Notes: generated from the sequence alone by a model not told the origin. 55,514 nucleotides of DNA from Candidatus Micrarchaeia archaeon (GCA_050303335.1 JBNLBN010000003.1:1-55514); one strand, 5' to 3'; positions 5,052 through 38,207 are shown, counted from the first letter of the stretch. Numbers and translations are program-made.

Positions 5052-5082
5052 CTATTTAAAGAAAATCTCCGATTTGTACCCC

Positions 5083-8856: not shown

Positions 8857-10833
8857 CTGGGCGATAATCAATCCGGCAAAGACCAGAGAGACAGTGTTTA
8901 CTACTTTTATCAAGGCATTGAGTGCAGGTCCTGCCGTATCCTTGAGGGGATCTCCGACAGTATCGCCTACCACTGCAGCCTTGTGGGCATCTGAACCTTT
9001 GCCACCGAACTGTCCTTCCTCGATCAGCTTCTTGGCATTATCCCATGTAGCGCCTGCTGTTGTCATCGTCAGGGCGAGCATAAGTCCGCCTGCGATTACT
9101 CCTGCAAGGAGCCCTGCAAGCGCCTGTGCACCGAATACGATTCCGACAACAAGGGGGACTATCACAGCCATAGCACCTGGAAGAGCAAGCTCCCTAAGTG
9201 CTGTTGCGGTTGAAATATCAACGCATTTGGCATAGTCTGCCCTGGCTTTGCCTTCCATCAGGCCCTTTATCTCCTTGAACTGTCTTCGCACTTCTTCTAC
9301 AATCTCGAATGCCGCGCGGCCAACGGCCAGCATCAGCAGTGAGGAAAAGACGAATGGAAGAAGGCCTCCGATGAACAGACCGATTACGACCGGGGGATCA
9401 AGAAGGTTTACCGCTTCAAGGTGCGCTTCCTCTGCGAATGCCACAAAGAGCGCAAGAGCCCCAAGTGCCGCACCGCCTATAGCAAAGCCTTTCGTCGTTG
9501 CCTTCGTCGTGTTTCCGACGGCATCCAAAGCATCTGTTACCTTCCTTACTTTTGAGGGAAGTTTAGACATCTCTGCAATTCCACCTGCATTGTCCGTGAT
9601 CGGTCCGTATGCATCAACTGCAATTATTATTCCCGAAAGGGAAAGCATTGCCGCTGCTGCGAGCCCGATTCCATAGAGCCCCGCGACCTTGAATGATATC
9701 ACGATCGCGAAGAGGATCACTATGACTGGAAGGGCGGTTGCTTCCATACCGAGGGCAAGGCCCTGTATGATGTTGGTTGCTGCACCTGTCGTCGATGCGT
9801 TTGCAACATCCTTCACGGGCTTGTGATCCGTTGCAGTGTAGTATTCTGTTATCATGAAGAGAAGCAATGTAACCACGACTCCCATGATTATCGTGACAAA
9901 GAGCGACATTGCAGGGATTGGAAGGTCTGCCAGGTCGTTCAGATAGAGGTAAGATCCTCCGAGCATCACCAATGCCGCAACCAGTATTCCCGTATAGAAA
10001 TAAGACATGATTTTCTTCTGTTCCCCTATTCCGACGAACAAAGAACCTATGATGCTTGCAACCACTCCGATTCCGGCTATTGCAAGGGGGATCTGGATCA
10101 TCAGGTCTGTTGTCGCGAAGGTAAGGCCGATAAGCATCGCAGCGATTACCGTGACGACGAAAGACTCGAAGACGTCTGCAGCCATACCGGCGCAGTCTCC
10201 GACGTTGTCACCGACGTTGTCAGCAATAACTGCCGGATTCCTAGGGTCATCCTCAGGAATTCCTGCCTCGATCTTTCCGACGAGGTCAGCACCGACATCT
10301 GCTGCCTTTGTGTAGATTCCTCCGCCGACCCTTGCAAAGAGCGATATCAGGGATGCACCGAAGCCGTAGCCTATGAGCGGTGCAAGCTCCCCGAAATACA
10401 TATAGAGGGATCCGACCCCGATGAGGCCAAGGCCTGCAAGCGCCATTCCTGTAACCGCTCCGCCGTTGAACGCTATTCCCAGCGCGGGCTTGAGGCCCTT
10501 CTTTGCTGCCTCAGCTACTCGGACATTCGCCCTTACTGAAACCTGCATACCAATGTAACCAGCCAACGCCGATGAGATGACACCTGCCAAAAACGCAACA
10601 GCAGTAAACGTATCAACCCCGAAGTTGATTACAGCCAATAAAACCAAGACTATTGGAGCAAGTGTCTTGTATTGCCTCATCAGGAAGGCATTTGCACCCT
10701 CCTGTATTGCCTTTGAGATCTCTTTCATCTCTTTAGTCCCGTCTGGCGAGCTTATCACCCTCCAGGCGAGGAACAAGGCATAAAGCAAGGTGAGAACACC
10801 TGCAGCCAATGCTAGTGTAACTGCATCTATCAT
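8839..10833 (-). CDS. hppA: Membrane-bound H+(or Na+)-translocating pyrophosphatase
   Basis: 664 aa, about 16 TM helices. Signature segments GGIYTKAADVGADLVGK, DNVGDNVGDCAGMAADVFES, DAYGPITDNAGGIAEM and GDTVGDPLKDTAGPALN. Confidence 0.95.
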   Translation of the reverse strand: MIDAVTLALAAGVLTLLYALFLAWRVISSPDGTKEMKEISKAIQEGANAFLMRQYKTLAPIVLVLLAVINFGVDTFTAVAFLAGVISSALAGYIGMQVSVRANVRVAEAAKKGLKPALGIAFNGGAVTGMALAGLGLIGVGSLYMYFGELAPLIGYGFGASLISLFARVGGGIYTKAADVGADLVGKIEAGIPEDDPRNPAVIADNVGDNVGDCAGMAADVFESFVVTVIAAMLIGLTFATTDLMIQIPLAIAGIGVVASIIGSLFVGIGEQKKIMSYFYTGILVAALVMLGGSYLYLNDLADLPIPAMSLFVTIIMGVVVTLLLFMITEYYTATDHKPVKDVANASTTGAATNIIQGLALGMEATALPVIVILFAIVISFKVAGLYGIGLAAAAMLSLSGIIIAVDAYGPITDNAGGIAEMSKLPSKVRKVTDALDAVGNTTKATTKGFAIGGAALGALALFVAFAEEAHLEAVNLLDPPVVIGLFIGGLLPFVFSSLLMLAVGRAAFEIVEEVRRQFKEIKGLMEGKARADYAKCVDISTATALRELALPGAMAVIVPLVVGIVFGAQALAGLLAGVIAGGLMLALTMTTAGATWDNAKKLIEEGQFGGKGSDAHKAAVVGDTVGDPLKDTAGPALNALIKVVNTVSLVFAGLIIAQSLGVI

Positions 10834-13169: not shown

Positions 13170-13204
13170 AGCCTTTTTATCATATTTAACCACAGTTGAT
13201 TATT

Positions 13205-13651
13205 ATGAAAGGCCAAGTAAGTACTGAACTTCTTATTATCGTCGCATTAGTGCTGTTGATTTTTATCCCGCTCATTACGCTTGTATATTTCAAGGCGAAC
13301 GAGGCAAACCAGCAGATTGGAGCATACCAGGCTGAATTGTCAGTCTCAAGGATAGCATCGCTTGCGAATTCCGTTGGATCGCTAGGAACAGATACTTCTG
13401 TAACCACGGATGTATTCATACCGCCGAACATCGTCGAGCTACGTACTGAGAACATAGGCAACGGTGCAGAGCTTTCGCTCACCCTTGATACCCCGCAGGG
13501 ACCGAGTACCCCTGTCGTGCACATTATCAGGTATCCGGTTGTAAACGACGGTGTCCTGGCCGATTCGAGCCATGCAGGCGGATGGATGAGAATAAAAATC
13601 TCTTCAGAATTCGTCGACAACAGGGCCCAGATAAGGATCCAGAAGGCCTAG
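13205..13651 (+). CDS. Archaeal type IV pilin-like protein (class III signal peptide)
   Basis: MKG|QVSTELLIIVALVLLIFIPLI has a short basic N-terminus, a G-Q prepilin peptidase site, a QxSxE motif and a hydrophobic helix. The track start at 13196 is TTG; the first ATG is at 13205. Confidence 0.65.
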   Translation: MKGQVSTELLIIVALVLLIFIPLITLVYFKANEANQQIGAYQAELSVSRIASLANSVGSLGTDTSVTTDVFIPPNIVELRTENIGNGAELSLTLDTPQGPSTPVVHIIRYPVVNDGVLADSSHAGGWMRIKISSEFVDNRAQIRIQKA

Positions 13652-19443: not shown

Positions 19444-20323
19444 CTGTTGCAGGAATGAATCCGTAGTTTATGTCCCTTATTCGAACAAGCACTACTGTGA
19501 GAAGCATTTCCTTGACATGTTCGACAAGCGGTTCAGGAAAACAATACGGGAGTTCTCATTGCTGAAAAAAGGGGAACGGATTGCTGTCGGATTGTCGGGC
19601 GGAAAGGACAGCTGCGCCCTGCTTCATTCACTGAAAAACATGAGCCTCCCTCTTGAACTTGTGGCAATTACCATTGATGAAGGAATTGATGGCTACAGGA
19701 ACAGGACACTAGAGACTGCGAAAAGAGAATGCAAAAAGCTGGGGATCGAACACAAAGTTTTTTCCTTCAAGAAAGAGAAGGGGAAGACGCTCGATGAGAT
19801 TATGTCTGAGAAAAAAGATGACATCCCCTGCAGCCATTGCGGCGTGATCAGGAGGTATCTGCTGAACAAGGCTGCACGAGAGGTGGATGCAGAAAAACTG
19901 GCGCTCGGACACAACCTTGATGATGTGGCGCAGACAGTGATGATGAACATCATGCGAAACGAACCATCCCGCCTCGCAAGATTCAATACGCCCCTTGTGA
20001 CAAGCAGCAGGTTCGTCCAAAGAATCAGGCCTTTCATCCGGACTCCTGAAAAAGAGATTGCGATATACTGCATGCTGAAGGGTATAGAACTTGACCGTGA
20101 CGACTGCCCATATGCAAGGTTTGCACTGCGTGCCAATGTCCGCTCAATGCTCAATACGATGGAAGAGAAATACCCCGGAACGAAATACAAGGTACTGAAT
20201 TCTTTCCTGGAAATGGAGGATGCTCTGGTCGCCAAGTATTCGAAAAACGCCGCTATCAACCATTGTGTTTCCTGCGGGGAGCCGTGTTCGGCGGATGTCT
20301 GCAAGTTCTGCAAAATTGATTAA
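19436..20323 (+). CDS. tRNA 2-thiolation PP-loop ATPase (TtuA/NcsA/Ctu1 family)
   Basis: PP-loop VGLSGGKDSCALLH, Fe-S ligand pattern PCSHCG...DDCPYA, and N- and C-terminal Cys clusters (CC...CEKH; CVSCGEPCSADVCKFC). GTG start. Confidence 0.85.
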   Translation: MADCCRNESVVYVPYSNKHYCEKHFLDMFDKRFRKTIREFSLLKKGERIAVGLSGGKDSCALLHSLKNMSLPLELVAITIDEGIDGYRNRTLETAKRECKKLGIEHKVFSFKKEKGKTLDEIMSEKKDDIPCSHCGVIRRYLLNKAAREVDAEKLALGHNLDDVAQTVMMNIMRNEPSRLARFNTPLVTSSRFVQRIRPFIRTPEKEIAIYCMLKGIELDRDDCPYARFALRANVRSMLNTMEEKYPGTKYKVLNSFLEMEDALVAKYSKNAAINHCVSCGEPCSADVCKFCKID

Positions 20324-21243
20324 ACCCGGTATTCCAGTTTCTGGAGCAGCATGTGCCGGTTAGCTTCGAAAAGAGGTTCGATATTATCAGCAGTTACAGG
20401 GGCTTCTGGCAGATCCAATAACCGGATAGGGCCTCCGATCCTTCTTGTTTCATCAAGCATGAACCTAAGCTGTTTCAGGTCCCCTAAGATGACGGGCATC
20501 TGCTGCGCACTGTGAGAAAGGAAAGCCATCACACAATCGAACTCGTCCGTCCTGTAGTTTGTCTTGAACATTACCCAGAAAGCGCACATGGCACCGAGTA
20601 TGGAGAGGGCTTCGTGGTTCTCAGTTTGTCTTGGATTCATGCTGATGCCATCAATATCAAAAAAGACTATTTTTCCGTCATGTACATGATAATTTGCCTC
20701 CGGATGGTCGATTATTATTCCTGCCCTTGATATTTTCTCGATCGCATCAGCTAATCCAGGAGTCACAATACGCTCAAATTGGATTGCCCGGATCTTGATC
20801 GGGTATCCATCAGCATGCTCGTAGAATTTTTTGCGGTCACGGGTTTTCCTTTCGATTGTGCCTGTACTGTCCGGAACATAATCAGAATAGCTTGAGTAAA
20901 CGAACCTTGGATGGGTACAGTGGGCCCTGAATTCATGGAACCTTGGGAAGTTTTCCGGAAACAATACCCTTGCATACCCATGGGCAAGGAACTTCATTAC
21001 GTGGTGCCCTGGTTCGATCGAGTTGAAGATGCCGTCATCGATATTCCCCCATTGGCTTTTCAGGGTAAATCGCTTCACATCATAGATTGAGAAATCGGCA
21101 AGATTCACGTGCGAGATCCTCTCGACAAGGCCTTCCATTCTGCCGGAAGAGAGCCTGGTCACCTTAGCCTCGTCCCCCCTGCATATGAGGGATCTCCTTC
21201 CCGGCTCTGGCTTTCCCATAATAATCTTCATCAGGTTAATCAT
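20320..21243 (-). CDS. Hypothetical protein (possible atypical kinase-like fold)
   Basis: IIDHPEANYHVHDGKIVFFDIDG resembles a catalytic-loop (HxxxxN) plus DxD metal-loop arrangement. This is a weak, by-eye call only. Confidence 0.45.
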   Translation of the reverse strand: MINLMKIIMGKPEPGRRSLICRGDEAKVTRLSSGRMEGLVERISHVNLADFSIYDVKRFTLKSQWGNIDDGIFNSIEPGHHVMKFLAHGYARVLFPENFPRFHEFRAHCTHPRFVYSSYSDYVPDSTGTIERKTRDRKKFYEHADGYPIKIRAIQFERIVTPGLADAIEKISRAGIIIDHPEANYHVHDGKIVFFDIDGISMNPRQTENHEALSILGAMCAFWVMFKTNYRTDEFDCVMAFLSHSAQQMPVILGDLKQLRFMLDETRRIGGPIRLLDLPEAPVTADNIEPLFEANRHMLLQKLEYRV

Positions 21244-22070: not shown

Positions 22071-22163
22071 GGATATAAATCACTTATTTACATCAATAAC
22101 AATATATAATTGTTATATTTTATGTAAAATAATAAAAATACTTTGCATCATCAGAATTAAACC

Positions 22164-22571
22164 ATGACATCCAGAAAACGCCATATCAGAGAATTTCCCG
22201 ACGCAACGGATGATCAGCCTTATTCCATGAAGGTAAGGATGCCAAGCTCGCTTAAATGCCAGAGGGCAAATGCCACCAGAAAGAGGACATTCGAGCTTGA
22301 CAGGGAGCTGGAGGAATTGCGCAGATCCGGCACCACTTTCCTTGTTGAAAAGAGCGATTTCGATTTTGTAGGAGACATAGCAACAGGCCGGATAAAGCTG
22401 GATTCCCTTACGAGGGAAAGGCTTGAGAGGATATTTGTAAGCACGATTGGGATGGATCTTCAGGGAGTCCATCCGGATGCCGTAATCAGACATACAATCA
22501 TTCTTCAGGATTGCCTCAGGGTCCGCAGAGATCTGTTCGGGAATCCTCTTGATGAAAAATTGATCAAATAG
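22164..22571 (+). CDS. Hypothetical basic protein (135 aa)
   Basis: Plausible charged/helical composition and same strand as the downstream genes. The competing antisense ORF 22113..22622 has shadow-like composition. Confidence 0.45.
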   Translation: MTSRKRHIREFPDATDDQPYSMKVRMPSSLKCQRANATRKRTFELDRELEELRRSGTTFLVEKSDFDFVGDIATGRIKLDSLTRERLERIFVSTIGMDLQGVHPDAVIRHTIILQDCLRVRRDLFGNPLDEKLIK

Positions 22572-22602
22572 CAGGAATATAAAGCATCCCTGCACATATC
22601 GA

Positions 22603-24042
22603 ATGGGGGATGATATGAACAAATTGAGAATGGCTTTGGCACTTGGTGGAAGTGCTGCACTGGTTTATGGTGCATTCAGATTGATCGAACCGCTAATTGA
22701 AGGACCAAAACTGAAATTTCCAGATGTCAAAGAGATGGATGGAACATATATCTGTAAAGGTACTGTGGACTCTGAAAAAATTGCACCCAGAAAGGTGGAG
22801 ATCCAACGAAGAGGGTTGAAACGTTTTAATATCAAGTCAAGAGTTAAGGACCAGGGATTTGAGACTTACGTAAAAGATATGGAATTCGATGGAGATTCAT
22901 TCTCATATTCCGGAGACATGCAAGTCACGTTTTATAGGAATGGAGAGGATAAAGGAAGCTGTTTTTGGAACGTAACCGCCAGAGGAGAGTATTATGGTAA
23001 TAAAATCGAATTTTCAGAACATCGGACTGCCCTAGCAACCAGAGATGTATGCAAAGCAATAATGAAAGACCACAGTGCAAAAATCTCTTGTCAAAAGATC
23101 TCGGAATCAAAATGTAGACAGGACTATCACAGAGCAGTATTCATAAGACCCTGTAATGGAGATTTCTATTCTGATAAATCGTTTGAGGTAGTACTTGGAA
23201 AAAAATCTGTTGAATCTGTATGCCAGGATTTAAGGGAAAACTGTATTTCAGACATATTCATAGGTATGAAAGTCGACCATCCTGCAGCCAATTGTGGGAT
23301 AGTAGGAACCCCTAATCCAAAGCCTGCAATTGAAAACATCATTAAAGAATGCAATGACATGAACATTCATGCGTGGGTACCTGTTTTTTATGATCCATAT
23401 TTGATCAGCACCGTTGGAGAATCAATAGCTTTGCAAAAAAATGATGGAACGAGACATAGTGAGTTTTTAGATCCTGAAAATCAATTAGTTATTGAAAAAA
23501 AGATGGCCGAGATTAGACTTATAATCGATAATTACGAGGTAGATGGGTTGAATTTGGATTACATAAGATATTCTGAAGAAGAGGGGTATTCTCCAAACCC
23601 GGAAGCGATAGAAAATTTCGTTAAAAAAGTTAAAGCAAATTCAAGAGGTTTGATAGTTTCAGCAGATGTGATGGCTAATCCTGGCATGAGAAACAAGGTG
23701 GGCCAACAGGGCGTTCCGAGATTAGTAGACGTAATTATGCCTATGAGTTACAGCTGGTTTCATACAATATCGACCGGGATAGATCAAAAAGAGATTGCAG
23801 AATTGGTTGAGGATTCTGAACTACGAGCAAATATCGCTCTATTGGCTTCTGAAAATGTCGGCAAGCCGATAATTCCGATTTTGAGGGGCTGGAACATAGA
23901 TAATAGAAGCATCCAGGAGGACATTTCCCATGAAGTAATTGTAGTCAAAGGATTAGGAGTAGAGGGATATGGGATCTTCACATATGAAAAATTATTAATA
24001 GATGGTCATGAAGATAGCATAGGGAGGTTTGAGTTTAAATGA
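22603..24042 (+). CDS. N-terminally anchored protein with a C-terminal GHL10-type (COG1649/YngK-like) glycoside-hydrolase-like TIM barrel
   Basis: N-terminal TM segment LRMALALGGSAALVYGAFRLI, a Cys-containing middle domain, then FLDPENQLVIEKKMAEIRLIIDNYEVDGLNLDYIRY, the hallmark segment of family-10-like hydrolases. Confidence 0.65.
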   Translation: MGDDMNKLRMALALGGSAALVYGAFRLIEPLIEGPKLKFPDVKEMDGTYICKGTVDSEKIAPRKVEIQRRGLKRFNIKSRVKDQGFETYVKDMEFDGDSFSYSGDMQVTFYRNGEDKGSCFWNVTARGEYYGNKIEFSEHRTALATRDVCKAIMKDHSAKISCQKISESKCRQDYHRAVFIRPCNGDFYSDKSFEVVLGKKSVESVCQDLRENCISDIFIGMKVDHPAANCGIVGTPNPKPAIENIIKECNDMNIHAWVPVFYDPYLISTVGESIALQKNDGTRHSEFLDPENQLVIEKKMAEIRLIIDNYEVDGLNLDYIRYSEEEGYSPNPEAIENFVKKVKANSRGLIVSADVMANPGMRNKVGQQGVPRLVDVIMPMSYSWFHTISTGIDQKEIAELVEDSELRANIALLASENVGKPIIPILRGWNIDNRSIQEDISHEVIVVKGLGVEGYGIFTYEKLLIDGHEDSIGRFEFK

Positions 24043-24788
24043 GATACTTGCTCATTGCGATCATAATGCTTGCTGGATGTGTATCGGATAATCATAATTT
24101 TGAAAAAGCCAATGATTGGCTGACAGAAGAATTCAGGGCACCGGGTCAGCCGTCGTGCAATGAGTTTGACAGCTTTGAAAAGTCAGGGCATATATGTGAT
24201 AACATAACCTGGGAAAAGAACAATTTCTCATTAACATTAGTGGATTCATATCTTTATGGCAAAGCATGGCAAGAAAAATCACTCTACATAGAGATCAGAG
24301 GGGGAAATGCATCAGGATTGCTAAAAAATGATGGTGCTGAAAAGGCGTATAATATTGCATGTGAAGATAAGGCGGGGATAGTTATTACCCGAAACGACAC
24401 CAAAATCTTCCTATTTGACAATTTGACATATGTTGGAGAGTCATTTGATAATGTTCCGTGTATCTCCGAAGATCTGGATCTATTGATCCTAGCCGGAGTA
24501 TTCCGGGATTGCACGGGTTCCGGGTGCTATTATGAGAAAATGGAATCCTGCAGGGCTCTTGTAGATGATGATTTATGTTTCTTCGAGATTGCCCAAAAAA
24601 CACTAGACAATCCATTGCGTGCATACGACATATGCCACATGATGGACAACAAAAACAGCAAGAAATGGATTTGTATGAGGAACGTGGCTGAGAAAGTCGA
24701 CCCGGAACTTCTTAAGGAAAGATGCTTTGGTCTTTCAGGGTATGTGCAGGAGTGTTTGGATTCGATCAACGTTAGTGATAGAGGATAA
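24039..24788 (+). CDS. Cys-rich putative lipoprotein
   Basis: MRYLLIAIIMLAGC has a lipobox-like LAGC. About 15 Cys are spread through the mature part. ATGA overlap with the upstream gene. Confidence 0.6.
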   Translation: MRYLLIAIIMLAGCVSDNHNFEKANDWLTEEFRAPGQPSCNEFDSFEKSGHICDNITWEKNNFSLTLVDSYLYGKAWQEKSLYIEIRGGNASGLLKNDGAEKAYNIACEDKAGIVITRNDTKIFLFDNLTYVGESFDNVPCISEDLDLLILAGVFRDCTGSGCYYEKMESCRALVDDDLCFFEIAQKTLDNPLRAYDICHMMDNKNSKKWICMRNVAEKVDPELLKERCFGLSGYVQECLDSINVSDRG

Positions 24789-24792
24789 CAGC

Positions 24793-24867
24793 AATTTATG
24801 TAAAATTCCCAAAAAATAAAGATTAAGAGGTAGAAATCATCCAAGATAGTGGGAAATTTATGTAAAA
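24793..24867 (+). repeat. Two copies of AATTTATGTAAAA (24793-24805 and 24855-24867) in the 174-nt spacer upstream of 24963
   Basis: Exact 13-nt direct repeat, 62 nt apart. A related TTTATGTAAAA occurs at 22119-22129, upstream of the first gene of the AT-rich block. Confidence 0.6.
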
Positions 24868-24902
24868 ATTGATAAAAGTAATATATTATGGTTTTTTATG
24901 AT

Positions 24903-24934
24903 TTTTGCTTCTCTTTTTAAACATTTTGCTTCTC
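24903..24934 (+). repeat. Two copies of TTTTGCTTCTC (24903-24913 and 24924-24934)
   Basis: Exact 11-nt direct repeat, 21 nt start to start, 30-60 nt upstream of ATG 24963. Confidence 0.6.
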
Positions 24935-24962
24935 ATATAATATGTGAGGGGAGGGGTTAATT

Positions 24963-25625
24963 ATGAGGAATATCACAAAACCGGAAACACCGGAAGTTAA
25001 TAGGAGAAGTTTCTTAAAAGTTGCAGGACGGGGACTGGTAGCAGGACTTGCATTTTATACGGCATCAAACATTCTAGGTCCAAGCATCGCTAATTCACAG
25101 GGTCCGGAAACGAGGAATGTCGCAGGACACGAATTGAGGGTTGTGGAACTGAGCGAATCTCTCGAGAAAGTCGAGGAGAAGAGCGAGCACTATCCGAAAA
25201 CAGAAAACACAGTCAAAAAAGATGGAAAGGATGTCTACTTAAACGCTAGAACCGTTCCAGAAAAAGTAAGTTTCACTGTAGGTTTGGGAGAGAGCATGAA
25301 GGCCTTTTCGTTTAGACTTTATGAAACTGGTAAAGTTGGAGAGACTAGCATAGAAAACTTTGTAAGGATTGTAAAGGAGGACACAGGAAAGGACATAACA
25401 AAGGTAAAAATATTGATCGAAAAGGGGTCTTACGAGGAAGGTGGAAAAAGCCACGAATTCATCAATGCATATGTTCTTCCTGTGAATGAAGAGGGAAATC
25501 CTATAACTCATAGAGGAGAGGGTGAATACCTCATATACGGCGCAACACAAATGGGTGAAAAAGTGTTTGCAAAAGAATATGTCATGAAAGACCCGGACCA
25601 CAAGATAGTGGTTGCAAGCAGATAA
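24963..25625 (+). CDS. Exported hypothetical protein with a twin-arginine signal
   Basis: NRRSFLKVAGRGLVAGLAFYTASNILG fits the Tat consensus (S/T-R-R-x-F-L-K). A strong GAGGGGAGGGG purine tract lies just upstream of the ATG. Confidence 0.6.
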   Translation: MRNITKPETPEVNRRSFLKVAGRGLVAGLAFYTASNILGPSIANSQGPETRNVAGHELRVVELSESLEKVEEKSEHYPKTENTVKKDGKDVYLNARTVPEKVSFTVGLGESMKAFSFRLYETGKVGETSIENFVRIVKEDTGKDITKVKILIEKGSYEEGGKSHEFINAYVLPVNEEGNPITHRGEGEYLIYGATQMGEKVFAKEYVMKDPDHKIVVASR

Positions 25626-25632
25626 TTCCATT

Positions 25633-25647
25633 TTTTATATCTTTTTA
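25633..25647 (+). promoter_or_regulatory. TTTTATATCTTTTTA promoter-like (TATA) element upstream of ATG 25662
   Basis: A 15-mer identical to 26638..26652 lies 15 nt upstream of the start codon. Confidence 0.45.
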
Positions 25648-25661
25648 TCTAATTTCTTAAT

Positions 25662-26633
25662 ATGTCAGGAACACGACCAATGGGCATGGAAGATGGGGAA
25701 ATAGCTACTTCTGAGACTTCACAACTTGACCAAATGAGGGTAAATGAGACCGTTACTCAACATCTTCAACAGAGGTTCCCACCACCAGAAATTCCGCAGA
25801 ATGTACCAATTAATGAAAGAGACATAGCACAGCAAGAGGTAAACAGACACAATGCAACACTGGGAGAGATGTCAACAGCTGTAGTAAATCGAGATGAGCA
25901 GGCATTCTCCGAAGGTGCTAGGACACTTGATCCGGAAGTCAATGCAAGGCAAGAATACGAGCAGGCCTTAAGAGTAGCTAACCAAGGATATGCAGCTCAG
26001 GGAAATGATGCAGTTTTGAGGGGGGATACTGAGGCCCAAAGAAGAGCAATAGAAGGTGGAAAAGAGACTAGGGAGGAGATCGTCAGAATAACTCCGGAAG
26101 AGGAACAGTCAGCAGTTTCGGAGGAACTTGACAAGGGGTTTCTTGAAATAATGGGAAGAGATGCTTCTGATCAACAGAGGGAAGACATGCTTAGAATGGC
26201 AGCAGGCATCGGATTCTCCGCTGCAGCCATTATGACATTGGAAAGCCAATGGAAGCTGGGCGAAGATGAAAACGAAGCCCAGAGATCAAGGTTCAAGGGA
26301 GATTTCAACCCGAACGAACAGGTCGCAAGATCCAAATTCCATGAAGCGCTGAGAGAAAGCATCAGGAGGCAGGCACAGGATCTAGATTCACAGATAAACT
26401 GGTCAAAACCCCAACCAAGAGTAGATGATTCACTACAGGAGACACAGGAATACCAGGAGATGAGGGCACAACATGGAAGGGAGATTGTTGACAGATATGC
26501 AAACAGCGACCAGCCCACTACAGAAGCAAGAATTGATGATGCATTAGAGCAATACTACGCATCCAGAAGAATGGTAGGCCCGCCACCAGACACTAATGGT
26601 TTGAGAATGAGACCAGTCGGTCCAACTATATAA
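25662..26633 (+). CDS. Hypothetical Gln/Glu/Arg-rich protein
   Basis: 323-aa clean ORF with no TM or signal. Helical, polar composition. Confidence 0.5.
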   Translation: MSGTRPMGMEDGEIATSETSQLDQMRVNETVTQHLQQRFPPPEIPQNVPINERDIAQQEVNRHNATLGEMSTAVVNRDEQAFSEGARTLDPEVNARQEYEQALRVANQGYAAQGNDAVLRGDTEAQRRAIEGGKETREEIVRITPEEEQSAVSEELDKGFLEIMGRDASDQQREDMLRMAAGIGFSAAAIMTLESQWKLGEDENEAQRSRFKGDFNPNEQVARSKFHEALRESIRRQAQDLDSQINWSKPQPRVDDSLQETQEYQEMRAQHGREIVDRYANSDQPTTEARIDDALEQYYASRRMVGPPPDTNGLRMRPVGPTI

Positions 26634-26637
26634 CACA

Positions 26638-26652
26638 TTTTATATCTTTTTA
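26638..26652 (+). promoter_or_regulatory. TTTTATATCTTTTTA promoter-like (TATA) element upstream of ATG 26678
   Basis: Identical 15-mer, also preceded by CA, about 26 nt upstream of the start codon. Confidence 0.45.
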
Positions 26653-26677
26653 AAACTTTTTTAGCTAATTATATCTC

Positions 26678-27862
26678 ATGAAAAAACTTCTTATCGCCGC
26701 ATGTCTTGCAGGATGTGCAACCGGCCCTGCACCGTATGAGCCTTCAGCTCCTCGGCAATGGGTGAAAAAACCTGCTGTAGAGGAACTTTCAAAATATGAT
26801 TATTCCTCTGAAAACGGACTGTTCAGCGCATCAAAAAGACAGTTTGGCAAATATGAGATAAATATAATCAGCAATGTTCCGGAATTCAGGAACCCTTCCC
26901 TTCTTGATCTGGATGAAGGAAGGATGTACTTTGGAGAGTTCAAAAATGCATTCAGACGATTCGAGGAAGACGATTTGATGATAACATGGAAATCAGTCGT
27001 TATGGGGGCCGTGGCAGGAGAAGAAACTCAAGCGGTAATTGCCCTGGTAAACAGTGAAGGCGCAGCCAGGTTTCCTGAATTTGATGAATTGTTGGTGGAG
27101 TTAAGCGGCAAGAAACCGACAGGATTCAAAATTGCCCAGACAGAATATTTGGACAGGAACAACAGAATGAATAGATTCTCCAATATCATGACGTCATATT
27201 TTATCCCTGAAGATGGTATCGGGAAGGGGGAATGGGGCCAATTAGGAATAGGAATCACGTTCGATGCAGTATCGGAAAGGCGGGAAGCTGGCATTGTTCT
27301 GATACCTGAAAGAATCGAAGCTCTGGAAGAAAAAATTGGAAAATCAATGAGCATATCCACTACAAGTTCATTGGCGGAGTTTGTTAAAGGAACGCAATTG
27401 CAGGAAGTTCCGGCTACTTATGAGATACCTGGGTATGGAAAAATTGTCTATGATGGTAATAAAGTTGCTGTTTTGGCAGCTCAGTATTCAGAGGCTTTTG
27501 AAACGCCTGATTTCAAGCATGGCAGGGTCTGGATGGTCGATAAATCCGGGGCGATAATCATAATACCGGAAGGGCTGGATCAGGAAGGACAGGAGGTACT
27601 GATAGTAAAGATGAAAAAGCCAAAGGTGTATGTGGAGAGGACCTTTTTGAGGCCAAAAAAGGAACAGCAATTCGACCCGGAAATCGTAAAGGATGTTCCC
27701 AGAATATTATTCGTTTTAGATGAAAGCCTGAAAACGCTCCGAGCAATAGGTGAAAAAGCTGATAGCAGGGAGGAGAAGGAAGAGGTCCTTAGATCATTAG
27801 AAAATGAGGGTTTTGGTAAAGACGCTATAGACACTGTGAGAAAGGAATGGAATTTGGATTGA
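26678..27862 (+). CDS. Putative lipoprotein (394 aa)
   Basis: MKKLLIAACLAGCATGP has a lipobox-like LAGC. No other motif recognised. Confidence 0.6.
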   Translation: MKKLLIAACLAGCATGPAPYEPSAPRQWVKKPAVEELSKYDYSSENGLFSASKRQFGKYEINIISNVPEFRNPSLLDLDEGRMYFGEFKNAFRRFEEDDLMITWKSVVMGAVAGEETQAVIALVNSEGAARFPEFDELLVELSGKKPTGFKIAQTEYLDRNNRMNRFSNIMTSYFIPEDGIGKGEWGQLGIGITFDAVSERREAGIVLIPERIEALEEKIGKSMSISTTSSLAEFVKGTQLQEVPATYEIPGYGKIVYDGNKVAVLAAQYSEAFETPDFKHGRVWMVDKSGAIIIIPEGLDQEGQEVLIVKMKKPKVYVERTFLRPKKEQQFDPEIVKDVPRILFVLDESLKTLRAIGEKADSREEKEEVLRSLENEGFGKDAIDTVRKEWNLD

Positions 27863-27893
27863 TTTTTAATCACTTTTCCCTAATTTTGTCCCT

Positions 27894-30203
27894 ATGCTTT
27901 CTAAACGTTATGATAAATCCATAGAGGAGAAATGGCAGAATTACTGGGCGGAAAACGGCACGTATAACTTCGACGACAATTCGGATAAGGAGATCTACTC
28001 CATAGACACCCCTCCGCCTTTTACGAGCGGCGAGCTCCACATGGGCCACGTACTCTCATATTCCTTCTTCGACTTTGCTGCAAGATACAAGAGGATGAGG
28101 GGCTACAATGTCTATTATCCGCAGGGATGGGACACGCAGGGGTTTCCTACGGAAGTGAGGGTCGAGAAGAAATTCGGGAGACTGCCAAGGGAGCAGTTCA
28201 GGGAAAAATGCATCGAATGGACCCATGAGATGATAGCAAGGATGAAGGAGCAGATGCAGGAGATGGGATTCTCCCCTGACTGGAGATTCGAATACAGGAC
28301 AATGGATCCGGAATACCACAAAAAAGTCCAGATGTCCCTCATCAAAATGTACAATGACAAGCTGGTATACATGGACAAGTATCCTGTATACTGGTCACCT
28401 GAACTGGGTTCAGCAGTTGCTAAGGCCGAGCTGGAAGACGTCCAGAAGCAGGGAACGATCTGGGACATAAAATTCAAGGGGCCTGAAGGAGAAGACCTGA
28501 TAATTGCAACTACAAGGCCCGAGATGCTCCATGCATGCGGAGCGATACTTTATTCGCCTGAGGACGAACGGTACAAGCATCTTAACATGAAGAAAGCAAC
28601 CACTCCGCTCGGGCATACTGTTCCAATAATAGCTGACAGGGAAGTTGACAAGGAATTCGGATCCGGGCTTGTCATGGTCTGTACATTCGGTGACAAGATG
28701 GACGTCGTCTGGATGCACAGGCACGAGCTTCCGCTGAAGCAGGTCATTGACTACAATGGCAGGATGATCAATTCCGGGGAGCTTGACGGGCTCAAGGTGG
28801 AGGAAGCAAAAAAGAAGATGATCGAGCTACTTGGGGACAAGGTGGTTTCATCAAAGCCTTTGACGCAGACAGTAAAAGTACATGACAGGTCGAAGAAGCC
28901 TGTTGAATTGCTTCCGTCGCTCCAGTGGTTTGCCGACATCAGGAAGACAGGATCTAAAATCAAGGAGATGGCGCAAAAGATCAAATGGGTCCCTGAATTC
29001 GGGATATCATATCTTATTGACTGGGTGGAGGGTGCAGAATGGGACTGGGTAATTTCCAGGCAGAGGGTATTCGGTACTCCGCTTCCGTTCTATCTTTGCG
29101 AGTGCGGAAAGACTGCTGCTGCAGACGAACTCCCATTCTATCCTGAGAAGGCGAAGGAGAAAAAATGCGAGTGCGGGAAAATGATGAAGCCTGAGATTTC
29201 GACATGCGACTGCTGGGTCGATTCATCGATTTCTCCATTGATAATAGCAGGCTGGCCCGATGAAGAAAAAATGAAGAGGTTCTATCCTGCATCATTGAGG
29301 CCGCAGGGCGTGGAGATCGTGCGGACATGGGCTTTCTACACGATATTCAGGAGCGGCGTTGCGCTTACGGGGATTCCTCCTTTTGATACCATACTCCTTA
29401 ACGGGAATGTGCTTGCTCCCGACGGAAAGAAGATGAGCAAATCAATCGGCAATGTCATTACTCCAAAGGAGATACTACGGGAATACCCCGTCGATGCTGT
29501 GCGCCAGTGGGCTGCAATGAGCGGTGCTATGGCAAAGGACAGGCCGTTCTCATACGAGGACATAAAATACTCGAAGAGCTTTTTGACGAAAATCTGGAAC
29601 GCTGCAAAATTCGTCCAGGGAATGGGTAATGCCGAGAAGACAGAACTGACAATGGTCGATCGATGGATAATTGGAAGGCTGAACGAAACGATCAGGGATG
29701 TTACCGAATCGATGGAAAAATACGAATACCACAAGGCGATTACAAGGATCCAGTCATTCTTCTGGGGAGAATTCTGCGACTATTACCTGGAATACGTGAA
29801 GCACAGGGTATACAACAACATGCCATCAAAAAACGCTGCACTCTATACTTTGAACAAGGTGCTCCATGACACGATAAGGATAATTGCACCGATTGCTCCG
29901 CATATGGCAGAGGAGATAAATGCAATTTATTCAGATAAGCCTGTGCACCTGCAGGGATGGCCTGAGGGGGGAGAACTGTATCCTGAAGATGTCGAAAAAG
30001 TGAAGGTAATGAATGAGATCGTGTCTTTGATCAGGCAGCACAAGTCCAACAACAAGATGGCGCAGAATGCCGAACTTGAAAGGCTAACAATATCGACCCC
30101 CCAAAAACTGGATGATGAACTGATTGAGGAACTGAAAGAAATCAGCAAGATAAAAGAAGTGGAAAATGTCGAGGGGGAAATATCACTGGGGAATAACCCT
30201 TGA
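27894..30203 (+). CDS. valS: Valyl-tRNA synthetase (short archaeal form)
   Basis: Class Ia HIGH region PPPFTSGELHMGHV, CP1 editing region, KMSKS (GKKMSKSIGNV) and an anticodon-binding helical domain. Distinguished from the IleRS at 30683..33496 by size and motif context. The Val versus Leu call is from overall similarity by eye. Confidence 0.85.
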   Translation: MLSKRYDKSIEEKWQNYWAENGTYNFDDNSDKEIYSIDTPPPFTSGELHMGHVLSYSFFDFAARYKRMRGYNVYYPQGWDTQGFPTEVRVEKKFGRLPREQFREKCIEWTHEMIARMKEQMQEMGFSPDWRFEYRTMDPEYHKKVQMSLIKMYNDKLVYMDKYPVYWSPELGSAVAKAELEDVQKQGTIWDIKFKGPEGEDLIIATTRPEMLHACGAILYSPEDERYKHLNMKKATTPLGHTVPIIADREVDKEFGSGLVMVCTFGDKMDVVWMHRHELPLKQVIDYNGRMINSGELDGLKVEEAKKKMIELLGDKVVSSKPLTQTVKVHDRSKKPVELLPSLQWFADIRKTGSKIKEMAQKIKWVPEFGISYLIDWVEGAEWDWVISRQRVFGTPLPFYLCECGKTAAADELPFYPEKAKEKKCECGKMMKPEISTCDCWVDSSISPLIIAGWPDEEKMKRFYPASLRPQGVEIVRTWAFYTIFRSGVALTGIPPFDTILLNGNVLAPDGKKMSKSIGNVITPKEILREYPVDAVRQWAAMSGAMAKDRPFSYEDIKYSKSFLTKIWNAAKFVQGMGNAEKTELTMVDRWIIGRLNETIRDVTESMEKYEYHKAITRIQSFFWGEFCDYYLEYVKHRVYNNMPSKNAALYTLNKVLHDTIRIIAPIAPHMAEEINAIYSDKPVHLQGWPEGGELYPEDVEKVKVMNEIVSLIRQHKSNNKMAQNAELERLTISTPQKLDDELIEELKEISKIKEVENVEGEISLGNNP

Positions 30204-30659
30204 AGTAATCCGCCCTGCAACTACATGTTCAGTTGTCCCGCAATCCTCCCCGATTTCAGATGCGCATGAAACGTAGGAGAAATTGCCGACAAACCTCTTG
30301 ATGTCGCCTTCTGGAACGTCAATCGGGACATCTGCAGTGAACGTCGTGTTCGAGCCGCTCTCCAGTTGTGCATTGCTAGGAAGGCCCGTCAATTCATAGC
30401 CGTCAGTCGTCCGGATGTTGATTTCGGTAATTCTTATCCTGTAGGGGAATGCGTTGAACACGGTTACGCCAAGCTTTGTTCCGCCCTCGTTGTACATTGC
30501 AACCTTGCATGGCAGGTTGTTCCCGAAATTGCACTCTTCTGAAATGAGATATGTAGGCGAGAGTATTCCTGTGGTCATGATCACTCCAACGACTATTACG
30601 AGAGCAAGGATCGCCCATCCGTAGGTCATCAAATATTCGACTGCTGCTTGGCCTTTCAT
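30183..30659 (-). CDS. Archaeal type IV pilin-like protein (class III signal peptide)
   Basis: MKG|QAAVEYLMTYGWAILALVIVVGVIM. Its 3' end overlaps the valS 3' end by 21 nt, convergently. Confidence 0.65.
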   Translation of the reverse strand: MKGQAAVEYLMTYGWAILALVIVVGVIMTTGILSPTYLISEECNFGNNLPCKVAMYNEGGTKLGVTVFNAFPYRIRITEINIRTTDGYELTGLPSNAQLESGSNTTFTADVPIDVPEGDIKRFVGNFSYVSCASEIGEDCGTTEHVVAGRITSRVIPQ

Positions 30660-35327: not shown

Positions 35328-36275
35328 ATGGAAGACATTCTACCATGGACAGAAAAATACAGGCCAAAAAAGCTCGATGAAGTTTCGGGACAGACCGAGA
35401 CAGTAATAAGCCTGAAGGCATTCGTAGAAAAAAAGAACATGCCGAACATGCTGTTTGCCGGTCCGCCCGGTGTCGGGAAGACCACGTGCGCCCTGGCGCT
35501 TGCAAAGGAGCTGTACGGAGAGCTGGCCGGAAACTTCCTTGAACTGAACGCCAGCGACGAGAGGGGGATAGACGTAGTAAGAGGGAGGATAAAGGATTTT
35601 GCGCGCAGCGTTTCACTTGGTGATGCTCCATTCAAGCTTATTTTCCTTGACGAAGGGGACGCACTTACAACGGATGCGCAGCAGGCGCTGCGAAGGACCA
35701 TGGAGGCCAATTCCAAGGTGACAAGATTCATAATTTCAGCAAACTATTCATCCAGGATAATAGAGCCGATACAGAGCAGGTGCGCGATCTTCAGGTTCAT
35801 GCCGCTGACACTGGAAGAGGTTAAGAAATCCCTGGAAAAGGTGGTTTCTGCAGAGGGGCTGAAAGTGAGCGATAGCGCATATGAAGCGATATTTTATGTT
35901 TCGGAAGGAGACATGAGGAAGTCCCTGAACCTGCTTCAGGGAGCTGCAATGCATTCCAAGAACATCGACGAGAAGCTTGTCCACAAGATAAGCAGCCGGG
36001 CGATGCCCAAGGAGATACACGGCATGGTGGATCTTGCGATCAAGGGGAAATTCCTCGAATCCAGGGAGAACCTGGACAAGCTGATAATATCGTACGGCTT
36101 AAGTGGCGAGGACATACTTTTCCAGATCTACAGGGAGATACCTAAGCTTGAAGTGGATGAGAAGAAGAGGGTGGCGCTAATCGAAGCTGTCGGCGAATCG
36201 AACTTCCGCCTGGTCCAGGGAGCTAATGAAAGGATCCAGCTTGAGGCTCTTCTTGCAAAGTTGAGCTGTTTATGA
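35328..36275 (+). CDS. rfcS: Replication factor C small subunit
   Basis: PWTEKYRPKKLDEVSGQ, LFAGPPGVGKTT, IFLDEGDALT and SRC motif IQSRCAIFRF. Confidence 0.95.
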   Translation: MEDILPWTEKYRPKKLDEVSGQTETVISLKAFVEKKNMPNMLFAGPPGVGKTTCALALAKELYGELAGNFLELNASDERGIDVVRGRIKDFARSVSLGDAPFKLIFLDEGDALTTDAQQALRRTMEANSKVTRFIISANYSSRIIEPIQSRCAIFRFMPLTLEEVKKSLEKVVSAEGLKVSDSAYEAIFYVSEGDMRKSLNLLQGAAMHSKNIDEKLVHKISSRAMPKEIHGMVDLAIKGKFLESRENLDKLIISYGLSGEDILFQIYREIPKLEVDEKKRVALIEAVGESNFRLVQGANERIQLEALLAKLSCL

Positions 36276-36847
36276 AGCTGCTGCTTTTCCTTATTTTGCT
36301 GCCTTTTGCTTTCGGAAAGATGATTGCACCTACCATTTACGAGCAGAATGATTTCGGCCCCCTGTCGTATAATGAATTCCTTTACTCCATGAGCGTAGAC
36401 TGTACCGCCGCGACTGTAAACGCGATAATAATGGACGAGGAATTCAAAAGGGTTGAAGGGGCGGCCACGTACCTTAAGTACATAGATTTCGCGCAGCCAC
36501 TGATATCCACCGTCAAATCGGACAAGGACGGACTCGTCCTCCACAAGCTCCCGGGGAATGTAAAACTAATGCGGGGGTTTTTCATTCTGGTGATTGAAAA
36601 AAACGGCTTCAGGAACAAAGAGGTCCATTTCGATATCGGGAAATGCTGGAGGAATGAGACGCCGGTAATAAATCCCCCTGAACCGGAGCCGGTGGAAAGG
36701 GAACCTGAAATAATCCCTATTGAGTCAAACAACAGTCCCATAGTAGAGGACGTTGTCGTTGAAAAGGAAGTGGAATCCGGCGACTGCCTGAGCATCCTGA
36801 TACCCCTAATCATATTTAAAATGAAGGCAATTGATTCTATTTTATGA
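36272..36847 (+). CDS. Exported protein, paralog A (signal peptide, beta domain, Pro/Glu linker, C-terminal Cys-TM tail)
   Basis: MKLLLFLILLPFAFG signal. Shares SMSVDC / QPL / KDG..V.K.PG / GFFILVIEKNGF..KE..F...KC with 37605..38207. Ends SGDCLSILIPLIIFKMK... ATGA overlap with the rfcS stop. Confidence 0.65.
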   Translation: MKLLLFLILLPFAFGKMIAPTIYEQNDFGPLSYNEFLYSMSVDCTAATVNAIIMDEEFKRVEGAATYLKYIDFAQPLISTVKSDKDGLVLHKLPGNVKLMRGFFILVIEKNGFRNKEVHFDIGKCWRNETPVINPPEPEPVEREPEIIPIESNNSPIVEDVVVEKEVESGDCLSILIPLIIFKMKAIDSIL

Positions 36848-37608
36848 GGTTTATCGTTCTGGCCTTGCTGGCCCTTCTGATCGGATGCGTAGGAGAGGAA
36901 GTGGACGAGGGCTGTCCTGAGATCTACAGCCCGGTCTGCGGAGTTGACGGAAAGACGTATGCCAATGACTGCTTTGCAAAGGATGTAGGAATAGGCTACC
37001 AGGGCGAATGCAGGAGCTGCAGCGAGACTGATTCCGGAAAGGATCCTTTCACAAAGGGTTCAACAAATGGGAATATGGACAGGTGCCTTGATTCATCAAA
37101 TCTTCTTGAGTTCTATTGCAATAACAGGGATGTCCTTAACACTACGATAAAATGCGACGACTGCGAAAACGGCGTCTGCATTAACAAGACCGAGGTCCAG
37201 GGCAACTGTTTCGACAGCGACGGTAATGACATATACGAAGTCGGATATGTTACTGAATATGACAACCTCTTCGAGGACCGCTGTGAAGGGGAAAGGGTCC
37301 GGGAGTACTACTGCGACGAGGGATTTGCGACATACAGGATAACTGACTGCCCTGATGAATTCACGTGCAGGGAATCCAGATGCGTCAGGAACAAGATAAA
37401 ATGCACTGACACGGACGGAGGAAACGACATCTATAATGCAGGGCGGGTTACGATCGATGCCCTTATCGATGCAGAATACCTTGACAAGTGCGTGGACAGG
37501 TACAAACTCCGGGAATACTACTGCGAGGCTGATGATCTTGTTGTCAGAGATGTCATATGCCCCGAGGGCTACAGGTGCCTCAATGCCAAATGCGTGGTGG
37601 ATGTATGA
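36844..37608 (+). CDS. Lipoprotein with an N-terminal Kazal-type domain and three Cys-rich repeat modules
   Basis: Lipobox-like LLIGC. CPEIYSPVCGVDGKTYANDCFAKDVGIGYQGEC matches the Kazal consensus (C..Y.PVCG.DG.TY.N.C). Three ~55-65-aa modules follow, of the form C.[DE][ST]D.G.D...D.C....L.E[FY]YC...C...C...C. ATGA overlaps at both ends. Confidence 0.7.
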   Translation: MRFIVLALLALLIGCVGEEVDEGCPEIYSPVCGVDGKTYANDCFAKDVGIGYQGECRSCSETDSGKDPFTKGSTNGNMDRCLDSSNLLEFYCNNRDVLNTTIKCDDCENGVCINKTEVQGNCFDSDGNDIYEVGYVTEYDNLFEDRCEGERVREYYCDEGFATYRITDCPDEFTCRESRCVRNKIKCTDTDGGNDIYNAGRVTIDALIDAEYLDKCVDRYKLREYYCEADDLVVRDVICPEGYRCLNAKCVVDV

Positions 37609-38207
37609 AAATTTTCATTTTATTGATGTTTGTCTCGTTGGGATTCGCAATAACTCCAGACATATATGGGGTGCAGGATACGGGAAGCGAGAGCCTCCCG
37701 GTAATCGATTTCAACCTTTCCTTAGACTGCGGAAACAAGGATCTTCAGGTTGTCACTCTGCTTGATGGGGCGGACCTCACGATGTTCTATACGGATTATG
37801 GATACCAGCCGCTCCCGAACAGGATGAAGACAGGAATCGATGGATCGGCCGTCATGAAAGTGCCCGGAACGCTTGATTTCCTTACAGGACTGTTCATACT
37901 CAGGATAGACAAGCAGGGTTACCAGTCAAGGGAGATAGAATTCACGTACGAAAAGTGCTTTGAAGAGCCGACTTTCGAGGATCCGGTATTCGAGGGCACG
38001 ATGGATGTCGGCCAGCAGGTGGGTGGACCGGAGGAAGTGACTGTCAACGAAACAGAGGTCATCCCTCAAGAGCCTGAAGTCCAGGCTGAGGAACCAGCTC
38101 CAGTAGCGATTGAAGAACCGAAAGAGGAGCAGACGGAAGAAACTCCGGGAGCATGTCCTCTGGGAATATTACTGCTTTCAATGATTTTCCTAAGGTCGAA
38201 GATATGA
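37605..38207 (+). CDS. Exported protein, paralog B of 36272..36847
   Basis: MKIFILLMFVSLGFA signal, the same conserved core, a long Pro/Glu linker, and an end of PGACPLGILLLSMIFLRSKI. ATGA overlaps at both ends. Confidence 0.65.
   Translation: MKIFILLMFVSLGFAITPDIYGVQDTGSESLPVIDFNLSLDCGNKDLQVVTLLDGADLTMFYTDYGYQPLPNRMKTGIDGSAVMKVPGTLDFLTGLFILRIDKQGYQSREIEFTYEKCFEEPTFEDPVFEGTMDVGQQVGGPEEVTVNETEVIPQEPEVQAEEPAPVAIEEPKEEQTEETPGACPLGILLLSMIFLRSKI

Follow-up and report, generated by a model that had tools for sequence, protein, structure and literature searches.

Is a run of AT-rich genes, most of them with seemingly exported products and lying between two ordinary genes of an archaeal genome, a recently imported island, a dedicated functional unit, or a surface-protein locus that evolved in place? 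This question is raised by a block of six co-oriented genes, B1 to B6 (positions 22071-27893), located between the genes of a metallo-β-lactamase (MBL)-fold hydrolase and of ValS in a Candidatus Micrarchaeia archaeon (GCA_050303335.1, JBNLBN010000003.1:1-55514). The window that we analysed is the whole stretch of 55,514 nucleotides, i.e., the entire 55.5-kb NCBI contig. We propose that the block is probably the form taken in this genome by a variable locus that encodes exported proteins at a fixed site, and that it consists of an inherited, fast-evolving and lineage-restricted trio (B4-B5-B6) with window-specific additions upstream (B1-B3).

A variable interval and an inherited gene trio

A search with ValS yielded 54 related loci, all from metagenome-assembled genomes of Candidatus Micrarchaeota/Micrarchaeia (ValS identity 53-81%), and the contig L060, whose ValS is 82% identical to that of the window, was added to them. 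In all, 60 loci were fetched for the homologue scans, and the gap statistics concern the 35 relatives that carry the MBL and valS genes on one contig and in the same order; the relatives compared are species-level representatives, not strains. Judging from the valS-linked loci, the host is a DPANN archaeon (Micrarchaeota), in line with the small, likely episymbiotic archaeon suspected in an earlier reading of this DNA made from the sequence alone (hereafter, the sequence-only reading). The neighbours of the block are ordinary for Micrarchaeota (H+-pyrophosphatase, enolase, TtuA, MBL-fold hydrolase, ValS, IleS, replication factor C, phosphoenolpyruvate carboxylase and fumarase), and the backbone common to the relatives consists of eno, TtuA, MBL, the gap under study, valS, a small pilin-like gene and ileS, in that order.

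Between MBL and valS lies a hot spot of accessory genes. The interval measures 41-122 bp in 8 of the 35 relatives and reaches up to 5.8 kb. Nearly half of the relatives (17 of 35) possess there, just upstream of valS, a B4-like gene immediately followed by a B5-like gene, and six of these 17 loci carry a second, lipobox-bearing B4 paralogue just upstream. The remaining content, found in 10 of 35 relatives, is unrelated and includes a TnpB-like gene, a VapC/ribbon-helix-helix (RHH) pair, proteins of 846-873 amino acids with 52-148 cysteines, and other lipoproteins. The synteny comparison that the sequence-only reading had recommended thus returned a content that does vary between relatives, but around a B4-B5 order that is kept.

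Some occupants of the interval deserve to be mentioned individually. By eye, we recognised a TnpB-like gene and a VapC + RHH toxin-antitoxin pair (L047:5594-6799 and L019:6853-7516, respectively, both on the − strand). The cysteine-rich proteins are encoded by L039/L040:6568-9114 (+ strand; 846 amino acids, 148 cysteines) and L024:7303-9924 (− strand; 873 amino acids, 52 cysteines). In L001 (closest relative), the region directly upstream of valS (1-9600) is occupied, in place of the MBL-B6-B4-B5 neighbourhood, by a minus-strand cluster encoding a P-loop ATPase (GVTGAGKS; HerA/VirB4-like), several multi-transmembrane proteins and a 704-amino-acid protein. Similar genes occur in L057 (124-6796), where the 500-amino-acid counterpart of the ATPase matches DUF87/AAA_10. 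The cluster may represent an integrated element, or else a module serving secretion, pilus formation or conjugation.

Four lines of evidence attach B4, B5 and B6 to this site. First, the two closest relatives, L055 and L060, have all three genes: L055 (GCA_016926175) displays MBL, B6' (37% identity), B4' (47%) and B5' (41%), after which the contig ends, and L060 reproduces the window order with B4 (41%), B5 (31%), a 252-amino-acid B6-like lipoprotein (28%) and valS (82%). Second, B4 homologues were found in 17 syntenic loci as well as in L055, L043 and L060, and the family is restricted to Micrarchaeota. Third, the B5 family comprises at least 17 members, each encoded directly downstream of a B4 orthologue. 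Fourth, HMMER, run exhaustively over 1.84 billion representative proteins, found only three B6 proteins, namely B6 itself, P0017 (40%), which adjoins B4'/B5' in L055, and P0018 (33%), which lies between the B5-like gene and valS in L060, as in the window. The occurrence of these orthologues at the same site in relatives makes B4-B6 an inherited set, not orphans. The sequence-only reading had counted six orphans, and this claim is to be abandoned, as B2, B4, B5 and B6 have Micrarchaeota homologues, mostly in the same neighbourhood, and only B1 and B3 are without relatives.

The trio diverges rapidly, its products being 28-47% identical to their orthologues vs 81-82% for ValS, 78% for IleS, 78% for enolase, 71% for TtuA and 58% for MBL. 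The accessory, exported and fast-evolving cassette foreseen by the sequence-only reading is broadly supported by this divergence, the variability of the interval and the export signals borne by four of the six products, but the block is not one six-gene module.

B4 (24963-25625, + strand) encodes a 220-amino-acid protein without cysteine, which carries a twin-arginine-type signal (NRRSFLK, an h-region and ANS-Q) ahead of a β-rich domain of about 170 residues with no fold match. Its AlphaFold2 (AF2) model, based on a 7-sequence alignment, has a predicted local distance difference test (pLDDT) score of 63.5 and a predicted template-modelling (pTM) score of 0.63, and presents a β-rich domain with two helices. 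B5 (25662-26633, + strand) encodes an acidic protein of 323 amino acids (60 D+E vs 38 K+R) with no cysteine, no signal peptide and no transmembrane segment, the conserved centre of which is QQREDMLRMAAGIGFSAAAI. Its annotated sequence has no exact match in the protein collection, so that the public start may differ; the start at 25662 aligns with that of the L055 orthologue. Neither the B4 nor the B5 family has a Pfam or PDB sequence match, except for TAT_signal in four B4 members. The best PDB match of B4, the transmembrane β-hairpins of Hia (62 columns, E 0.17), was taken as noise.

B6 (26678-27862, + strand) encodes a predicted lipoprotein of 394 amino acids with the lipobox LAGC at residues 10-13. 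The profile of the three B6 proteins aligned with the B4 family (hhalign Prob 94.7%, E 5.7e-8), residues 128-216 of B6 facing residues 126-217 of B4, and both share the motif aY.iP.D..G.pIG.GeWGq...Gi.F. The B4-like match lies in the N-terminal region of B6, up to residue ~216, and the C-terminal 180 amino acids are limited to B6 and its L055 orthologue. From this profile-profile alignment, B6 appears to be a paralogue of the B4 domain, predicted to be lipid-anchored, with a lineage-specific C-terminal extension.

Base composition and the question of import

The block is AT-rich, as the sequence-only reading had estimated by hand. Its GC content is 0.412, vs 0.479 in the remaining window, 1-kb windows range from 0.38 to 0.45 over 22-27.5 kb vs 0.47-0.52 in the flanks, and tetranucleotide usage departs most from the window average at 22.5-27 kb. 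The shift is located at third codon positions: the GC content at these positions (GC3) is 0.34-0.43 in B2-B6 vs 0.563 ± 0.061 in the 50 other genes (z −2.2 to −3.6), and B2-B6 are five of the window's six lowest-GC3 genes. Sliding-window GC, GC3 and tetranucleotide comparisons within the window agree for these five genes, but not for all six as had been supposed, B1, at the left edge of the block, being compositionally normal (GC3 0.52). The lowest GC3 of the window (0.315) is that of a free-standing LAGLIDADG homing-endonuclease gene (3855-4655, − strand; PF14528/PF00961), located between superoxide dismutase and Cdc48-like AAA genes, which is the source of a second GC dip at 3.5-5 kb.

Deviating composition of this kind could mean that the whole block is a genomic island, brought in recently by a mobile element or from a donor richer in AT. 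Such an origin would also agree with the lack of relatives of B1 and B3 in any set searched, with the TnpB-like and toxin-antitoxin genes present in the interval of some relatives and its emptiness in eight, and with the HerA/VirB4-like ATPase cluster lying directly upstream of valS in the closest relative. We nevertheless regard it as unlikely, for the following reasons. First, the position of B4, B5 and B6 is shared by at least 17 related species, so that absence from the site in relatives applies to B1 and B3, in part to B2, and not to B4-B6. Second, the GC3 of the B4/B5 orthologues lies below that of the adjacent MBL/valS genes in 14 of 14 relatives (mean difference −0.154), including much GC-richer and GC-poorer genomes (the GC3 of the flanking genes spans 0.25-0.89 across these 14 genomes), and L060 follows the same pattern. 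Because this offset tracks the syntenic B4/B5 pair through very different genomes, a single recent import is hard to invoke. Third, the family-library, PHROGs and PADLOC scans of the window proteins found no integrase, transposase, phage or defence family in the block, the sole tRNA genes of the window are at 50.5 and 53.5 kb, none at the block borders, and the search for border repeats or target-site duplications returned nothing but short matches, inverted or direct, at the level expected by chance. Among the features of a classical island, the block thus has the deviating composition and lacks the border signatures, as the sequence-only reading had already pointed out for integrases, transposases and tRNAs. 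Fourth, the GC3 of B1 at the left edge is normal; the island reading could still hold for the B2-B3 segment alone, and B2 and B3 could be later arrivals. As for a phage or defence origin, it was rejected, since B1-B6 have no PHROGs or PADLOC match, the scans of viral contigs returned nothing for B1 and B3, and the B4 model gave no match at E ≤ 0.001 when compared to BFVD with Foldseek.

Fast-evolving, weakly constrained genes drift towards AT. Rapid evolution under weak constraint accounts better for the low GC3 of the block than recent transfer does, and AT-richness alone is not a mark of foreign origin here. In the variable locus that we propose, low GC3 would reflect weak constraint, rapid divergence and AT-biased mutation. 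Since low GC3 follows the gene family across genomes of very different GC, compositional island calls can mislead, and caution is required in such genomes, where GC3-based calls can flag fast-evolving native genes, not imports.

Flexible islands, or plasticity zones, with cell-surface genes at fixed chromosomal positions are known from many bacteria and archaea. The block is of this known type, i.e., a flexible surface-protein locus, here with uncharacterised lineage-specific families. It shares with such islands the conserved flanks (MBL and valS), a content ranging from nothing to 5.8 kb, the enrichment in secreted, lipo- and cysteine-rich proteins, the occasional TnpB or toxin-antitoxin genes and the deviating base composition. 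It differs from them in that half of the relatives have an inherited B4-B5 core, that no tRNA or integrase serves as an anchor, and that the comparison is made at the species level.

Upstream genes, promoters, export signals and possible roles

B2 (22603-24042, + strand), which has the lowest GC3 of the block (0.34), encodes a protein of 479 amino acids with 10 cysteines. It comprises a hydrophobic anchor (residues ~9-26), a β-rich domain (~47-167) and a DUF4015 glycoside-hydrolase-like (β/α) barrel (~178-420), so that B2 is predicted to be a membrane-anchored, glycoside-hydrolase-like TIM barrel. The one barrel of this kind announced by the sequence-only reading is suggested by the following lines of evidence. 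First, residues 242-413 of B2 match PF13200 above its gathering threshold by a narrow margin (27.9 bits for a cut-off of 27.0; E 1.7e-6), and PF13200 is assigned to B2 and to its three database homologues, P0014-P0016. Second, the profile of the B2 family matches 4S1A (E 8.5e-10) and Cwp19 (5OQ2; E 1.7e-3) in PDB. Third, the AF2 model, of mediocre quality (pLDDT 58.8), displays an N-terminal helix, a β-rich domain and alternating strand-helix elements at 178-420. Fourth, the best Foldseek matches of this model are TIM-barrel glycosidases of the GH18, GH36, GH31 and GH13 families (E ~5e-6, prob 1.0), with template-modelling (TM) scores of only 0.2-0.3. The mediocre quality of the B2 and B4 models follows from the shallow AlphaFold alignments, as the word-indexed protein search gave few homologues (2, 7 and 4 proteins). 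Altogether, the fold and profile check suggested by the sequence-only reading (B2 and B4 models, PDB profiles) pointed to a glycosidase-type barrel for B2 and to no fold or family match for B4, B5 and B6.

B2 resembles PF13200, 4S1A (an uncharacterised protein) and Clostridioides difficile Cwp19 in the match of its C-terminal half, in the common strand motif G-x-N/D-L-D-Y-I-R-Y and in its predicted extracytoplasmic location. Unlike them, it comes from an archaeon and carries a membrane anchor at its N-terminus, an extra β-rich domain of ~120 amino acids and six cysteines at positions that are invariant in the B2 family alignment. DUF4015 has no established substrate or catalytic residues, and the literature on this domain yielded no characterised enzyme, only domain fusions being reported. 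Micrarchaeota have no peptidoglycan of their own, so that a Cwp19-like substrate of B2 could only be foreign. B2 homologues occur in one relative (L025/L057), in the TtuA-MBL and MBL-valS gaps, i.e., the same neighbourhood as in the window.

The stop codon of B2 overlaps the start codon of B3 (ATGA), which implies translational coupling of these two genes. B3 (24039-24788, + strand) encodes a predicted lipoprotein of 249 amino acids, with the lipobox LAGC at residues 11-14, 13 cysteines and six N-glycosylation sequons. B1 (22164-22571, + strand) is a 135-amino-acid ORF (open reading frame) with no signal peptide and no transmembrane segment, which is present as a called protein in the protein collection. 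For both B1 and B3, we found no relative in the 60 loci or in the viral/metagenome pattern scans, and no match in Pfam, NCBIfam, PHROG, PADLOC or PDB. By these searches, B3 is a true orphan, specific to the window and predicted to be a cysteine-rich lipoprotein. B1 is likewise a true orphan, and it is doubtful as a small ORF, being the weakest gene call of the six. That B1 would be a diverged copy of the small gene found after MBL in five relatives was ruled out (hhalign Prob 0.2%).

The coding signal of the block was evaluated with a codon model whose training set was the housekeeping genes of the window, comparing the six frames of each ORF. The annotated + frame is the best of six for all B1-B6, in keeping with the six co-oriented ORFs of the sequence-only reading. 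All six score below typical genes: housekeeping genes stand at 0.27 ± 0.06, B1 at 0.07 and B2 at −0.02, and B3 and B5 are low as well. These low scores would suit a block of lineage-specific filler, i.e., independent, weakly expressed hypothetical genes, some of which, such as B1, would not be genes. The same view may invoke the variable gene content of the interval, the lack of a functional family for five of the six genes, and the separate spacer upstream of every gene but B3, with TATA-like elements upstream of B1, B4, B5 and B6. It is, however, very improbable in view of the B4-B5 adjacency, the B6-B4 paralogy and the conserved B4 promoter region, which point to a functional unit, of the export signals on four of the six products, and of the B2-B3 overlap, which implies co-translation.

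The sequence-only reading had also noticed repeated AT-rich motifs in the spacers, and these are indeed over-represented. The motif TTTATGTAAAAT occurs three times in the window (0.32 expected), always inside the block: once, at 22119-22130, in the AT-rich MBL-B1 spacer (22071-22163, + strand; 18% GC), and twice upstream of B4. The 15-mer TTTTATATCTTTTTA occurs in two exact copies (0.23 expected), one at 25633-25647 in the B4-B5 spacer (25626-25661, + strand; 14% GC) and the other at 26638-26652 in the B5-B6 spacer (26634-26677, + strand; 18% GC), and in one copy with two mismatches. It resembles an archaeal TATA box, and its copy in the B4-B5 spacer stands ~29 nt upstream of the B5 ATG. In the relatives, the ~30-nt B4-B5 spacer always has TTTAAA/TTTTAA about equally far from the start of B5, GC-rich genomes included. 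The region upstream of B4 (24789-24962, + strand; 174 nt, 26% GC) contains TTTATGTAAAA(T/A) at both 24795 and 24857, a tandem 21-mer (24893-24934) with the TATA-like TTTTTAAAC within its second copy, and the Shine-Dalgarno-like GAGGGGAGGGG at 24946-24956. The core TTTTTAAT .. GTAGCG .. GGGAGGGG .. ATG is kept upstream of the B4 orthologues, taking across relatives the form TTTTTAA(T/A) ... GTAGCG ... GGGAGGGG ... ATG, and the long B4 leader has no Rfam match to a structural RNA or riboswitch. From the recurrence of these TATA-like spacer motifs and the conserved arrangement upstream of B4, dedicated promoters for the block genes can reasonably be inferred.

A TGTAA-N4/5-TTACA palindrome is also visible upstream of the conserved B4 promoter in L060 (~120-135) and L009 (~8000-8016), and in a degenerate form in L013 (~8090-8106); its counterpart in the window consists of TGTAAAA half-sites (24795-24868). 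This palindrome may be a candidate operator for some regulator. Upstream of the B4 orthologues, TGTAA[AC]A occurs in 8 copies vs 2.1 ± 1.45 in shuffled sequences, a result to be taken only as a lead because the pattern was chosen after the data were seen.

As for export, a lipobox was defined as [LVI][ASTVI][GAS]C within the first ~25 residues, following a short basic n-region and an h-region. The starts of B3 (MRYLLIAIIMLAGC) and B6 (MKKLLIAACLAGC) conform to it, as pattern matches only. The N-terminus of B4, PEVNRRSFLKVAGRGLVAGLAFYTASNILGPSIANS-Q, conforms to S/T-R-R-x-F-L-K followed by an h-region and an A-x-A-type site, and the same motif occurs in the L055 and L060 orthologues. Besides, PF10518 (TAT_signal) matches 4 of the 24 B4 family members (E down to 6.6e-5). 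The four export signals listed in the sequence-only reading are thus present as patterns (the anchor in B2, LAGC in B3 and B6, RRSFLK in B4), with the reservation that B4 falls below both twin-arginine translocation (Tat) cut-offs, as detailed below. These signal motifs suggest that B2, B3, B4 and B6 are located outside the cytoplasmic membrane.

The signal-less B5 gene directly downstream of a B4 gene with a twin-arginine motif (N-RR-S-F-L-K, a mildly hydrophobic h-region and an A-x-S/A cleavage-like site) recalls the Tat "hitchhiker" arrangement, exemplified by the small and large subunits of hydrogenases. In this case, B5 would bind folded B4 in the cytoplasm and be co-exported with it, both forming, with B6, a host-contact surface complex specific to Micrarchaeota. 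The strict adjacency of B4 and B5 in all of the at least 17 loci argues for such a partnership, as do the lack of a signal peptide in every B5 family member, the RR motif of B4 in the window, L055, L060, L003, L007 and L009, and the long B4 paralogue L045:6543, an exported B4 domain fused to a C-terminal stretch that resembles the B5 centre. However, this fusion signal is weak (19 bits; motif search E 0.018), no tat genes occur within the window, and about half of the B4 orthologues have no RR, some of them carrying a Sec-type lipobox, which is incompatible with hitchhiking since Sec exports unfolded proteins. Furthermore, the pair differs from the known hitchhikers in that there is no cofactor motif, B4 has no cysteine and Tat scores below the cut-offs, and RR is not family-wide. 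We therefore hold the hitchhiker scheme to be quite improbable. We give equally little credence to its wider form, in which B4, B5 and B6 would be subunits of an undescribed surface complex with a new β-rich domain that exists as two paralogues, B4 (exported by Tat) and B6 (lipid-anchored), B5 being co-exported with B4, the fast evolution resulting from host contact, and B2 and B3 serving as strain-specific adaptors to the host envelope.

Returning to the variable locus with an inherited trio, which we consider probable, its products might operate as follows. B4 would be a β-rich protein exported by Tat or Sec, possibly already folded via Tat; B5 would be its acidic, signal-less partner, encoded ~30 nt downstream behind its own TATA-like element; and B6 would be a lipoprotein with a diverged copy of the B4 domain at its N-terminus. 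B2 (signal anchor), B3 and B6 (lipobox cysteine) would be anchored on the outer side of the membrane and, together with B4, would be part of the cell-surface proteome of a host-dependent cell, where B2 would probably act on, and cleave, a polysaccharide of the envelope or matrix. The analysis establishes the composition, the synteny, the family relationships, the signal motifs and the glycoside-hydrolase-like domain; the localisation, the interactions of the core proteins, the substrate and the contact with a host are inferred here, and a cell-surface or host-contact role for the block is plausible. The attachment or envelope-remodelling system advanced by the sequence-only reading has nothing in its favour beyond signal peptides and one glycoside-hydrolase-like domain.

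Several points weigh against this view. First, B2 exceeds the DUF4015 cut-off by a tiny margin, and its model is poor. Second, the B4 model, only moderate in quality, retrieved nothing at E < 0.1 in PDB with Foldseek, and its best BFVD match had an E of 0.026; any function of B4, B5 and B6 is hypothetical. Third, the place of B5 in a surface complex is conjecture, its signal peptide being missing, and the hint that the B6 C-terminus shares the B5 central motif is weak and was not used (hhalign E 1e-3, Prob 21.6%; missed by the motif HMM, i.e., hidden Markov model). Fourth, B4 scores below the curated Tat models (12.6 bits for PF10518, cut-off 22.7; 13.2 for TIGR01409, cut-off 16.7), only about half of its orthologues keep the canonical RR, the rest having KR, a lipobox or neither, and the family scans of the window's genes found no tatA or tatC. 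Fifth, we know of no demonstration of lipobox processing in DPANN archaea. The literature on Micrarchaeota and twin-arginine offered nothing bearing on function.

Little is understood of the ways in which DPANN archaea bind to their hosts and make use of them, and the majority of their surface proteins lack an annotation. Our analysis defines a B4-B5(-B6) set that has no match in Pfam, in PDB or by fold, a conserved B4 promoter region, a glycoside-hydrolase-like accessory enzyme and a mapped variable MBL-valS site, which are candidates for localisation and host-interaction work in cultivated Micrarchaeota co-cultures. At present, they have the status of hypothetical exported proteins, not of a demonstrated system.

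Other features of the window

Several genes outside the block are worth noting. Between TtuA and MBL, beside the block, a 307-amino-acid ORF (20320-21243, − strand) of normal GC3 (0.55) has no family match and no homologue in the 54 related loci, where TtuA adjoins MBL; it is a second lineage-specific insertion. The products of 30183-30659 (− strand) and 13196-13651 (+ strand) start with MKGQ(A/V)..E(Y/L)L, then a hydrophobic stretch, and have no Pfam match; by eye, these N-termini resemble the archaeal class III (type IV pilin-like) signal. The former gene is kept between valS and ileS in 37 relatives. At the contig start (107-562, + strand), a NosD/right-handed β-helix fragment with a low GC3 (0.43) has weak PHROG tail-fibre matches, which probably merely reflect the β-helix fold. 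Finally, three small exported proteins are encoded in a row at 36272-38207 (+ strand), forming another surface/secreted cluster, of normal GC, one member of which (36844-37608) combines a lipobox with a Kazal-type protease-inhibitor domain.

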